Source: Chiloscyllium plagiosum
Taxonomy: Eukaryota
Length of the DNA stretch: 64,000 nt
NCBI RefSeq assembly: GCF_004010195.1
Contig: NC_057740.1
Location: 27,994,391-28,058,390, forward strand
Reading direction: 5' to 3'
The translations under genes and the position numbers were made by a program. Positions 27,871 to 34,989 of the stretch are shown here, piece after piece. The notes beneath the pieces are model-generated. The model saw nothing but the letters and a program-made list of their open reading frames with translations, ran no database searches and was not told where the DNA came from. Numbering within the stretch: the first letter of the stretch is position 1; the number at the start of each line of letters is the position of its first letter.

Positions 27871-29434
27871 CTGAATTAAATTGAATTTATTGTCATGTGA
27901 ACTGCGGCACAGTGAAAAACTTTGTCTTGTGAACAATGCAGGCAGAGTTAAGTAGCATAGATAAAAAATATTGGGTAAACAGCAACAAAAACAAAACACA
28001 GGAATGTTAAGACTTTGTGATTCCATTCAGTATTCTAACAACAGGAGGGTAGAAACTGTTTCAAAACTGGCTGGTGCATGTGTTCAGGCTTCTGTACCTT
28101 CTCCCTGATGGTAGAGGTTATAAAAAAACGTTGCCAGGGTGGGGTAGATCTTTGAGGATCCTGGTGGCCTTTCCTTGACAGTGAGCCTGGTAGATGGATT
28201 CTATAGATGGGAGTTTGGCCTTTGTAATTGTCCGGGCCGAGTTCATCACTCTCTGTAACCATCTCCGATCTTGAATGGTACAGTTGCCATAGCAGGTAAT
28301 GATACATACAGACATAGGCCCTCGATGCCACACCTATAAAAGTTGGCAACGGTATTTGCCGTCACGCCAAATTTCCTCAGCTGCCTGAGGAAGAAGAGAT
28401 GTTGCTGGGTCTTTGTAACCAGTACATTCATATGAAGAGTCCAAGAAAGCTTGTTGTGGATGACCACTCCCAGGAGCGTGACGCAGTCCACTTGTTCCAC
28501 CTCTGTGCTGTTAATGTGTAGAGGAGCATGAGTAACATCCTGCCGAAAGTCAGTACTGAGTTCCTTGGTTTTGCCGGCATTGAGAGCTAGGTTGTTCTCA
28601 GTGCACCATTCTTCCAGGTCTTCCACCTCCCGTCTGTAGTCTGTTTCGTCGCCACCTGACATTTGACTGACTATGGTGGTGTCATCAGCGAACTTGTAAA
28701 TGGCATTAGCCTGGTATTTGGCGATGCAGTCATGGGTATACAGTAAATACAATAGGGGGCTTAAGTACACCCCTGGGGGCTCCAGTGTTGAGTGTTGGTG
28801 AGGATGAAATATTGTCCCCAACCTTCACTGGTTGTAACCTGTGGGTCAGGAAACTGAGGATCCAGTTGCAGAGAGTGGGGTTTAGTCCAAGATCAGTAAG
28901 GTTAGTAATCAGTCTCGAGGGGATAATAGTGTTGAAGGCTGAACTGTAGTCAATGAGTAGGATTCTTATGTAGCTGTTCTTGGTGTCAAGATGTTCTAAG
29001 GAGGAGTGAAGGGCAAGTGATGTGGCATCTGATGTGTGTCTGTTGGTCTGATAGGCAAATTGGAGTGGGTTAAGAGTAGTGGGGAGGCTGGAGTTGATTA
29101 ATGTCATGACCAGCCTTTCAAAGCATTTCATGACCACCAAAGTTCGGGCGACTGGGCGGTAATCATTGAGACATGCTTCATGAGCCTTCTTAGGCACAGG
29201 GATGATGTTGGCCCTCTTGAAACAGGCAGGGACAGTGGTCTGCTGCAGGGAGAGGTTGAAGATGGCCAAGAAGACGTCTGCCAGTTGATCTGCACGTGCT
29301 CTGAGTGCACGGCCTGGTACTCCGTCTGGTCCAATCACTTTCCTTGGATTCACACAAAGGAAAACTGATCTGACCTCTGATGCAGTGACTGTTGGGATAG
29401 GTTTGTCAGGACTTGTCGGAATAGGTGTTACCAC
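27871..29434 (-). mobile_element. Rex1/Babar non-LTR retrotransposon, 5'-truncated, frameshifted RT
   Basis: ORFs NPRKVIGPDGVPGRAL...CLNDYRPVA...MKCFERLV...LQFAY...IDYSSAFNTI...TGAP and LYTHDC...YKFADDTT; tail tttcactgt...catgacaataaa(ttcaa)n. Confidence 0.92.
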
Positions 29435-29648: not shown

Positions 29649-29883
29649 TGAAATAACTTCACAGAGCTGGTATCCCATCACCAAGTCACCCTTTATTTAC
29701 ACATGGACAGTCTTTGACACAGAACCAGCTCCTTCAGAGCCAGGTCTCAGCGGGAATAGACCCTCTGACACTCCTGTTCTTATCTGTCAGCCAGGGCTCT
29801 CTCATTGGACCAAATTAACAACCCCAGTCAGGAAACTCATATTTTATGTGGTCCACCTGGCTGAGCTTGTTACAATCACTACA
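29649..29883 (-). mobile_element. Solo LTR of about 235 bp (Gypsy-like)
   Basis: TG...CA ends on the minus strand (tgtagtg...ttatttca), CCAAT, TATA-like gataagaac, AATAAA; homologous to 33268-34572. Confidence 0.7.
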
Positions 29884-32180: not shown

Positions 32181-33382
32181 ATAAGTAAAAACTGGGGAGT
32201 CAAATCCAGGTTGGCACACTATGATCTCTGCAAGGCAATTGGATCTTGATCCAATCATCTCCCAGCTGAAAGAAGAACTAAATGATTCATGACTAACAGC
32301 TGAAAGCAAAACAGGAGTAACATATTTATTTTTTAAGTAACTCTGTTTTCACAGAGCAGTGAAAGCCAGTCTAATTCACCCGAGCTTAGTGGGTATGGAT
32401 TTCTCTTCCCTGCGCTCCAGTTGTGGGCAAAGGAAAATGTAAAGTCATCAACTAAATTTGCCTTACGTGGGCATAAGCCCCATCAGTGAGGTTGGCAGGA
32501 TGTTTGTTCACGGACCTGGATTGTGCACGATCCAGCTGCTCCTTACTTAAACTTCCTACGACCTTACAACAGCTCCAGAGTCATATGAGGTTAGAGCCAA
32601 TTAACTATCTAGAAATTACCCCAGTACAAGTTTAATTTTGCACTGTTGGAATGATTAATAGACAGACACCAACACACACCTAAACATTCACGGTGTCAGA
32701 GAGATGGACAGGCCCTGAGGTAGCAGTAATTTGTATCTACATACACAGAATTAATTGGTCTGAATGAACTGCTGATTCAAATTAAGTAGTCGCTTGTAAA
32801 TACTGTGGATCAGCAGAATTCAACCTCCTTCACTCCTCTCCTTAGATGGGATCCATTCCAAATTTATGTTCAGTTTGCCATTAACCATGTAACAGGATGA
32901 CTTGAACTGCGTCTGATGACTACACTGTGAGCAGTATACTATAACAGGAATATGTAGTGACGTGGTCTATATGTACATTTATTAAATTTAGAGCTGACCT
33001 TAAGCTTTGCACTGTGTTTCCTTAACAAAGCAAAAACGAAATGTTAAAATTCACTTACCACACATGCACCTAAACCTGACTAACTGTTTATTGGAAGGTT
33101 TGGTGATTTTTTTTATTCGTTAGGTTTTGACATTGAAGCATGCAAGTTTTGTAAACAACAACGCACAGTCTCGAGCTTCCCTCGATAGCATGATGGATTG
33201 AGTGATTACAGATTATAGAACATAGAGTGTAGAACAGCACTGTCTAGGCCCTTCGGCCTCCTATGCCTGATATTATTTGCAATGATGGGAACCTGGTTGA
33301 TCTTATTGACCTTGAGATCCTTGATTGGGGTTGTTAGCCTGGGCCAATCAGGCAGCCCTGGTTGACAGATATGAACAGTGGA

Positions 33383-34360
33383 CCCTCTTCCGTGGTAATG
33401 TTAGAGCCCGGGTGTCTCTGGAGAAGGAGCACGCGGTGTCGACCAACACCCTGGAGTTGTTCAGGGAGAGGTGGGCGCCGCAGGGAGTGGAGTGTATTAT
33501 TTCCCCCTCCAACTCTATTTTGATTTAATCCCTGCCCTCCCCTTCACTGTTTGATCACACAGCACTGCCCTTTGATGTGAAGGGCAGTGTTTGTCACTGG
33601 TCACCCGGGTGTTTTCCTATCTTCCTGGTGGTGGAAATTGAATAAACATTTGTGCACTTTGTGTCTTTCACTGTGTCTCCCACCTGATGGGTGCTGGGGA
33701 TAAAATAAGCACTACCGCACTTAGGTGGTAGTGTGGGGGNNNNNNNNNNNNNNNNNNNNNNNNNNNNNNNNGCAGTGTTTGTCACTGGCCACCCGGGTGT
33801 TTGCCTAATTTGAGTGTATGTGCAAGGACTCTCCTTGAAGGCGACTATCCCTAGACCAGCTGCCCTACAGGAAAAAAAAAGAAATAAAAAGGAAGGACCC
33901 TCACTGTTTTGATCACACAGCACTGCCCTCTGATGTGAAGGGCAGTGTTTGTCACTGGCCAAAAAAAGAAAAAAAAAAAATGAACAGTGGACCCTCTTCC
34001 GTGGTAATGTTAGAGCCCGGGTGTCTCTGGAGAAGGAGCACGCGGTGTCGACCAACACCCTGGAGTTGTTCAGGGAGAGGTGGGCGCCGCAGGGAGTGGA
34101 GTGTATTATTTCCCCCTCCAACTCTATTTTGATTTAATCCCTGCCCTCCCCTTCACTGTTTGATCACACAGCATTGCCCTTTGATGTGAAGGGCATCGCC
34201 TGTCACTGGCCACTTGGATGTTTCCTTTCTTCCTGGTGGTGGAAATTGAATAAAGATTCGTACATCTTGTGTCTCTCACTGTGTCTCACATCTGCACACA
34301 CACACACCATGGGTGCTGGGGAGAAAATAAGCTCTACTGCAGTTAGGCGAGAAAAAAAAA
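33383..34360 (+). mobile_element. Tandem stack of Tx1-type (L1 clade) LINE 3' ends
   Basis: Two copies of ORF2 end LFRGNVRARVSLEKEHAVSTNTLELFRERWAPQGVECII, further 3' UTR fragments, several A-rich tails. Confidence 0.75.
33740..33771. other. Assembly gap (N)
   Basis: Run of N. Confidence 1.
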
Positions 34361-34989
34361 GAGATAAACAGGATTGTCAGAGATTTCTCTTCATTCTGAG
34401 AGCTGGCTCTGAGGGAGCTGGGAAAAAAAAAGAAAAAAAGGGAAAAAAATAAACAGTGGATTCAGAGAGTTCCCTGACTTCAGGGACTGGCTGGCCACGG
34501 CCCTGTATATTGTCCATATGTCTGCAAAGGGTGACTTGGTGACATGATACTGGCCGCTGGGCAATTATTTCATGCCCCTGGTGCACAGTACTGTATGTCA
34601 TCTAATTGTACGGCTGTAAATTTTTGTTTTAAACTGAAGATAATGCTTTTAAACTTGGACACTATGTACATTTTAGTTTGGGAGCCAGCAAACCTCATTA
34701 GCCTTGCTTTATGAAACATCTCCATATTTATCATGTCTTCATTAATTACCCTTTTTCAGATCATACAGAAAATTAAGAAAATGTATGTTATGGGAACCAG
34801 TTCAAGTGCCCAGACTAAGGGTGAAAGAACAGTTTCATTCAAGCAAATTGATTCTATAACTGCCAAAATAGTAGGCCTCATGTCAAACGTGGTCCTCAGT
34901 ACGTACGCAGTGTATCACTAGAAAATGAAACAATAACAAGCATAAGAGATAACAGATTCTAAACCTTGTTGGATGAGATAACCAAAGAC

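Follow-up and report, generated by a model that had tools for sequence, protein, structure and literature searches.

A LINE closely related to the Tx1L element of Xenopus inserts in the genome of Chiloscyllium plagiosum according to an upstream rule that is statistically firm and also valid outside the LTR family that receives most of its copies: a CCAAT box begins 26–27 bp before the insertion site. The case came to light in the window, a stretch of 64,000 nucleotides that forms part of a 3.56-Gb vertebrate assembly. By sequence inspection, a solo LTR of 227 bp (33268–33370 plus 34449–34572) was recognized there, with TG at 33268–33269, CA at 34571–34572 and the 4-bp duplication tgcc on both flanks (33264–33267 and 34573–34576). 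Its left half is a diverged relative of a 235-bp LTR family, matching in 64 of 115 letters the empty copy at 29649–29883 (minus strand), which served as position ruler. The left half contains an inverted CCAAT box (33324–33328, minus strand) 47 bp upstream of the cut and a CCAAT box on the plus strand (33344–33348), the proposed targeting determinant; the opening in the LTR, where the target-site duplication starts, lies 27 bp beyond the first C of the latter.

The array that fills this opening lies on the plus strand throughout, as do both LTR halves. It begins with the first copy of a 12-bp target-site duplication (33371–33382), followed by the 5′-truncated LINE unit 1 (33383–33739), in which the last 47 codons of ORF2 (33385–33525) and the stop codon (33526–33528) precede the 3′ UTR. 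After an assembly gap of 32 N (33740–33771) come the head (5′ end) of this LINE family, in which part of the family's own 3′ UTR is repeated (head proper 33772–33871, with its A-tail up to 33890), and a short fragment of the 3′ UTR hairpin region with an A-tail (33898–33961), preceded by a target-like word unlike the local one. Matches to the head piece were obtained at the beginning of the 5′ UTR in L222, L159, L138, L096 and L199, and also in A-tailed pieces of L139, L125, L112, L141 and L148. A second copy of the duplication, identical to the first (33980–33991), leads into unit 2 with its A-tail (33992–34361), whose 5′ junction and truncation point are the same as in unit 1; the two units show no differences in their first 183 nt and 20 in the next 155. 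A 60-bp piece (34362–34421), the final A-tail (34422–34448) and a third copy of the duplication with one mismatch (34449–34460), which opens the right half of the LTR (34449–34572), complete the array. A 410-nt contig from another sample and another study spans 34402–34750 with one letter different, and the right junction is thus independently supported. The TG..CA ends, the tgcc flanks, the CCAAT box and the imperfect 12-bp duplication had all been described in the initial annotation of this DNA and were all found where it had placed them, and the observation at the locus is confirmed as real. No tRNA was detected in the window.

The same annotation had interpreted the 60-bp piece as a 3′ transduction from a donor element residing in a different LTR copy, and this interpretation holds. 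The piece does lie between two A-tails, and it matches the local right half at 35 of 60 positions, the copy at 29649–29883 at 50 and other LTR copies at up to 54. It belongs to a class of 22 LTR fragments, 25–67 nt long, each starting at the target site and bounded by an A-tail at either end; of the 11 that could be tested, not one reaches a 95% match to its local right half, and 10 stay under 85%. Such alignments demonstrate transduction from donor LTRs for the class as a whole, and read-through transcripts would take 25–67 nt of LTR from the donor along to new sites. One fragment, in L185, lies at a non-LTR site and ends within a base of the end of the window piece. The alternative that the piece is a fixed part of the 3′ UTR was ruled out, the fragments ending at many different places. 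A 40-letter search of the assembly for the donor, allowing up to two mismatches, matched only the window.

The LINE has a poly(A) tail, 5′ truncations and target-site duplications, the last being 10–20 bp long at the 119 sites where they were called and mostly 13–16 bp at those outside the LTR. The end of ORF2 in the window is identical to the C-terminus of Xenopus Tx1 ORF2 at 19 of 42 positions (45%). A first search among longer proteins found no homologs of this C-terminal part, and a protein-atlas search returned only unnamed zf-RVT clusters. A near-full-length natural copy, L222, has a 5′ UTR and a putative ORF1, together with a fragment of the endonuclease and an open frame of 947 aa that matches RVT_1 (E 4.5e-33). 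The best named full-length relative of this frame is Xenopus Tx1 ORF2 (51% identical along all 947 aa of the query, E 5e-292), and fish Tx1 proteins, with 35–38%, lie well below it. At the N-terminal place, Exo_endo_phos was matched in a broken copy's fragment with E 0.0013 and 19 bits, below the curated cut-off of 24.5, and at the C-terminal place zf-RVT with E 8e-5 and 23.7 bits, below its cut-off of 27.5. Nominal open frames of 1,300–1,440 aa are given for several copies (among them G000:C9:9365228, C17:58552869 and C15:56543815); in the case of L222, this nominal length is inflated by a run of N, and the copy is broken. In L222, L117 and L136, the 5′ UTR and ORF2 are separated by an ORF in the ORF1 position, for which no Pfam match was obtained. 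The element is a target-preferring relative of Tx1L, a sort of LINE that was known before. An exact 31-letter word of its 3′ end has 1,207 matches in the genome, against none for a control word, and a variant of the 3′-end word has 169. Sequencing runs of two further organisms, B and C, contain 26–32% of the words at 33780–34700 of the window, and the family is therefore probably present in related species.

At its head, the full-length LINE repeats about 100–120 nt of the element's own 3′ UTR including a hairpin (L222:863-1070, L136, L138, L095, L096 and L199), and the head of L222 begins at the local junction of its array. Such terminal redundancy of head and 3′ UTR would help cDNA ends to pair with resident copies. 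For the shared hairpin in L001, L136 and L138, Rfam gave no match near a gathering score, and on this ground a ribozyme or snRNA was rejected.

The 235-bp repeat that hosts these arrays yielded 4,435 candidates at first look, and 40 scored copies are 83–87% alike to the window copy, that copy itself excepted. It is assigned to the LTRs by its TG..CA ends, by the PBS-like word that follows 11 ends, with an internal sequence behind it that is 67–80% alike between loci, and by a purine tract preceding four starts. Among 13 short internal frames there was one match to RT_RNaseH_2 (E 4e-8), which would be compatible with a Gypsy element. Flank duplications in 30 LTR copies measured 5 bp in four and 4 bp in two, and none was found in 24. 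The ORFs at 28246–29434 of the window, next to the empty LTR copy, were considered as the LTR element's internal region and rejected; they belong to an unrelated, broken LINE on the minus strand with RVT_1 and ALKBH8_N matches, which we take to be Rex/L2-like. In L053, the LTR is followed 135 bp on by a second right half that starts at the target-site region, a local duplication.

Insertions were sampled in four sets. Set A, ordered by position, was drawn from the first 100 of the 1,207 matches in listed order, which comprise every match on C1 and C2 and the first on C3; it contains 80 regions with 81 sites. Set B, not ordered by position, combines the 30 best BLAST loci with 20 longer regions, from which eight duplicates were dropped; set C contains 28 of the first 30 of the 169 variant-word matches, five of them unparsed, and set D consists of 20 short regions around the matches that come next in the list. 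Gaps or region edges hid the left ends of 7, 7, 1 and 5 clusters in sets A to D, respectively. Duplications were called by program at 119 sites, and 32 of the 151 clusters with a resolved left end were omitted because no duplication was called, because an A-tail formed the left end or because only the right half of the LTR was present.

The left half of the LTR forms the junction at 48 of the 74 resolved sites of set A, always in the orientation of the LINE, and both halves are present at 29. This far exceeds the threshold applied in the available text of PMC4494074, where a Tx1 family counts as target-specific if one sequence type occurs in over 20% of its flanks. These counts bear out the initial annotation, which had suspected repeated site-specific insertion at one LTR position. 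With 3′ ends collected by word and by BLAST, the latter as it had advised, the insertions did not prove to lie mostly in unrelated DNA, the LTR site accounting for about two thirds. LTR sites hold a median of five pieces and other sites one. Genome-wide, the exact site word occurs 713 times in LTR context (empty) and 214 times preceded by an A-run. The ratio of filled to empty sites is rough, being inflated by transduced copies and deflated by impure tails; judged by these exact sites, a considerable fraction of the copies in one LTR family have had their promoter disrupted by the LINE.

It is very improbable that the association is secondary, in the sense that a single LINE insertion was amplified together with the LTR element or that the stacks are assembly errors. 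There is, to be sure, a gap inside the window array, its two units are identical over 183 nt, and the inner junctions are without short-read confirmation, the three 2026 runs being too shallow for these junctions and for an empty allele alike. Among the read matches listed from these runs, none bridged the site with the whole insertion missing. Nevertheless, hitch-hiking with the LTR is rejected because duplication word and truncation point vary from locus to locus and because the LINE is younger than its host: LTR copies are only 83–87% alike, whereas unrelated LINE units differ by a median of 5.9%. Of 260 pairs of same-junction units, just 6% differ by 1% or less, and the right junction in the window is the one bridged by the independent contig.

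A second, different poly(A) element has 19 3′ ends in the sampled loci, and by eye most of them are succeeded by the same site word or the right half of the LTR (L148, L142, L152, L116, L140, L159, L160, L121, L147, L184, L186, L088 and L126). This second family may share the LTR target, in a set of loci biased by having been chosen for the first.

The CCAAT box was first noticed upstream of the non-LTR sites of set A and then tested on the program-called duplications. Its start lies 25–29 bp upstream of the duplication at 55 of the 76 LTR sites, most often at exactly 27 bp (37 sites), and at 13 of the 43 non-LTR sites (seven at 26 bp, three at 27 bp), compared with a background of 0.75% per 5-wide control window (P 7e-18 for 13/43). 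Among all 5-mers and windows tried, CCAAT was the top word. With one mismatch allowed, 20 of the 43 non-LTR sites carry the box against a background of 9.5%; the reverse word occurs 25–29 bp upstream at none of the 43, and no peak is seen downstream. The non-LTR boxes are spread over sets A to D (6/20, 4/15, 2/4 and 1/4), which leaves 7/23 outside the discovery set. With homologous flanks merged the count becomes 9/34, and with unique contexts only, both repeat groups being dropped, 8/33 (P 1e-10). Between box and cut, the majority base of the LTR is found in at most 6 of the 13 non-LTR box sites at any position, and these sites are therefore not decayed LTR copies. Insertion is thus tied in position and direction to CCAAT both inside and outside the LTR. 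A comparison of intact boxes in hit and empty LTRs (63/76 versus 20/30) is weak, the two groups having been sampled differently, and was not used.

The initial annotation had named the TATA-like site of the LTR as the target. The repeated use of one LTR position stands, but the landmark is best taken to be the CCAAT box; 10 of the 13 non-LTR box sites have no TATA word. One could still suppose that the Tx1 endonuclease is specific for the TATA-like word and that CCAAT is merely paired with it in LTR promoters: two thirds of the sites are at this word, CCAAT–TATA pairs of this spacing are enriched genome-wide (1,236 versus 565 in the control), and the Tx1L endonuclease is specific on its own according to the available text of PMC1950540. 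We regard this explanation as unlikely. The TATA word is also missing at 37 of 63 LTR box sites, and TATA without a box occurs at only three non-LTR and four LTR sites; conversely, 10 of 37 TATA-less non-LTR sites have the box. Non-LTR duplications share little beyond T|A-A/T-x-A, the cut site itself showing a T|A-rich bias only, and just 41 of 6,293 A-rich cut-like sites in the window have the box. The best reading of the target is a CCAAT box and, some 27 bp further, an A-rich cut site. For human NF-Y peaks, TATA is placed at +50 (PMC3730095, available text), and the word at +27 need therefore not be a working TATA box. Taken together, this suggests that the LINE steers by the CCAAT signal or its bound host protein, and not by the LTR or TATA as such.

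There are limits to the rule. Even with one mismatch allowed, the box is absent at 23 of the 43 non-LTR sites, and four reverse-strand insertions in LTR-related DNA lack the spacing (L113, L116, L152 and L205). The idea that L116 follows the inverted box of the LTR was dropped, the spacing being 18 and the box mismatched. A perfect box followed at the same spacing by a TATA word is also found in a second repeat family, which by eye accounts for most of the first 100 of the 1,236 matches; among the 119 called sites, three lie at that position in this repeat and two behind another box. Because this repeat is so rarely hit, the box is not sufficient: it positions the cut, and the frequency of insertion is set by something more, be it occupancy, the inverted box at −47 or further sequence. 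The second repeat is abundant and old and has at least two CCAAT boxes, and the LINE was seen behind either of them (L087, L155, L217, L106 and L139).

As to what reads the box, the host factor NF-Y is one candidate. Its recognition sequence has YRR before CCAAT. The 3′ part of the full consensus, YRR-CCAAT-SR, is given in the available text of PMC4982600. The flanks fit this consensus at four of five places in 10 of the 13 non-LTR boxes (7/10 when merged) against 19% of 187 CCAATs in the window, by a score that was defined after the boxes had been seen. NF-Y binds boxes in LTRs, selectively and also in unmarked chromatin (PMC3730095), and TRE5-A provides a precedent for a factor-guided APE-type LINE (PMC5911963), as far as the available texts go. 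Granted the box rule, we put reading through bound NF-Y just short of an even chance. Alternatively, ORF2p might itself read the box of the same two-part target, as R2Bm does, and a host factor would be unneeded. This, too, is a realistic possibility, although we lean against it. R2Bm, with its readout of RUM and RASIN, offers a precedent, reading a motif at −34 to −22 in addition to the cut site (PMC10499050, available text); the spacing of 26–27 bp is tight, the non-LTR sites are CpG-poor and not promoter-like, and the isolated Tx1L endonuclease is sequence-specific in vitro (PMC1950540, available text). Against direct reading, the non-LTR boxes have flanks of the NF-Y type and not the LTR's own bases, which occur in only 2/13 at −3 and 1/13 at −1. 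The rarity of hits in the abundant second repeat with its perfect box suits occupancy better than bare sequence, and the ORF2 pieces scanned yielded no DNA-binding domain of the R2 kind.

Growth of the arrays follows a pattern of its own. Among clusters with at least two pieces, the first junction recurs within its own cluster in 49 of 79 at LTR sites, but in only 4 of 30 elsewhere. Units with the same junction differ by 3.1% in their first 60 nt and by about 7% beyond 150 nt, whereas unrelated units differ by 6–7.6% along their whole length. That each insertion regenerates the target site, and that tandem insertions occur around the duplication, is known from other elements (PMC4494074; bioRxiv 10.1101/158386; available texts). 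Here, too, each insertion would duplicate the cut site and so leave the locus open to further insertion. A new cDNA, begun on another RNA, would switch onto the homologous resident unit, copy it through its 5′ junction and then anneal to the identical duplication. Stacked units would share a truncation point and differ in their 3′ parts because the cDNA finishes on the resident unit, as the divergence gradient indicates. Such template switching onto a resident copy appears to be the best reading of the same-junction stacks; alternatives are re-insertion of a transcript of the locus itself followed by conversion and, for block repeats, unequal exchange. Higher-order repeats were seen in the arrays L122, L134 and L150, where blocks of two or three units with linkers recur several times. 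A count of junctions shared across loci was discarded, as the junction words lay inside the LINE; a single cross-locus case, L125/L168, was seen by eye.

Overall, the LINE would integrate by target-primed reverse transcription at a sense-strand CCAAT with a loose T|A-rich cut 26–27 bp after its first C, the box being read through bound NF-Y or directly by ORF2p. One old, abundant LTR family would supply most such sites and about two thirds of the insertions. This whole explanation, consisting of a two-part target with the LTR as main supplier, stacking by template switch and read-through transduction, we consider probable. A narrower joint reading is put forward tentatively and is rather doubtful in all its parts together: the LINE would be tethered to DNA-bound NF-Y and nick downstream of CCAAT at a distance of some two and a half helical turns, old LTR promoters would be its main safe harbour, and the arrays would be self-growing by template switching onto resident copies.

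The closest known system is Tx1L of Xenopus laevis (YTX2, with an ORF2 of 149 kDa), to which the element is linked by the 51% ORF2 identity and putatively by an ORF2 of the APE-RT-zinc finger type, the APE and zinc finger matches here being below cut-off. Tx1L inserts site-specifically into another mobile element, the DNA transposon Tx1D. In C. plagiosum, by contrast, the targets are an LTR and other CCAAT sites, with about a third of the insertions off the main target, and the constant feature lies 22–27 bp upstream of the cut; the available text of PMC1950540 reports no upstream box for Tx1L. The initial annotation knew of no Tx1 element that targets an LTR promoter. LTR-preferring Tx1 families have in fact been described, namely the crocodilian Tx1-8_Crp and Tx1-4_AMi (Kojima 2015; PMC4494074), but the available text of that source gives neither the position of the insertions within those LTR elements nor a promoter-box rule. 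Tandem insertions sandwiching a duplication are found in the same source, including SINEU-3 in Mariner-N4_AMi. The head-to-tail units with a target duplication between them resemble tandem dimers by double insertion and R1 arrays (bioRxiv 10.1101/158386, available text); in those dimers, however, distinct truncations mark independent events, whereas here the truncation is shared and the 3′ parts differ.

Insertion at a fixed distance and in a fixed orientation to a factor-binding box is also found in elements of the type of Dictyostelium TRE5-A and yeast Ty3, which are placed in this way relative to promoters (PMC5911963; PMC6101501; available texts). TRE5-A is an APE-type LINE whose ORF1 protein binds TFIIIB (PMC5911963). 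Whereas these elements rely at tRNA genes on factors of RNA polymerase III, the present LINE lands relative to a promoter box of polymerase II, and the protein contact is putative. With R2Bm the LINE has in common a two-part target, made up of an upstream motif (−34 to −22) and a short motif at the cut site (PMC10499050, available text). R2 differs in its restriction-like endonuclease, its N-terminal zinc finger and Myb domains and its 28S rDNA target, the present element being putatively APE-type. In the literature searched, which covered few subscription papers and Repbase Reports and is weak evidence of absence, nothing relevant was found on a LINE tied to CCAAT or NF-Y or on Tx1 in sharks.

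How APE-type LINEs choose their sites beyond the bases contacted by the endonuclease is poorly known, and the off-target insertions of this family reveal an upstream landmark. For an element so near to the classic Tx1L, they yield a sharp rule of box, spacing and orientation. Such a CCAAT rule could also explain how Tx1 lineages move between very different target repeats. If NF-Y is the tether, factor-guided integration, known from polymerase III genes, would also embrace a promoter element of polymerase II.
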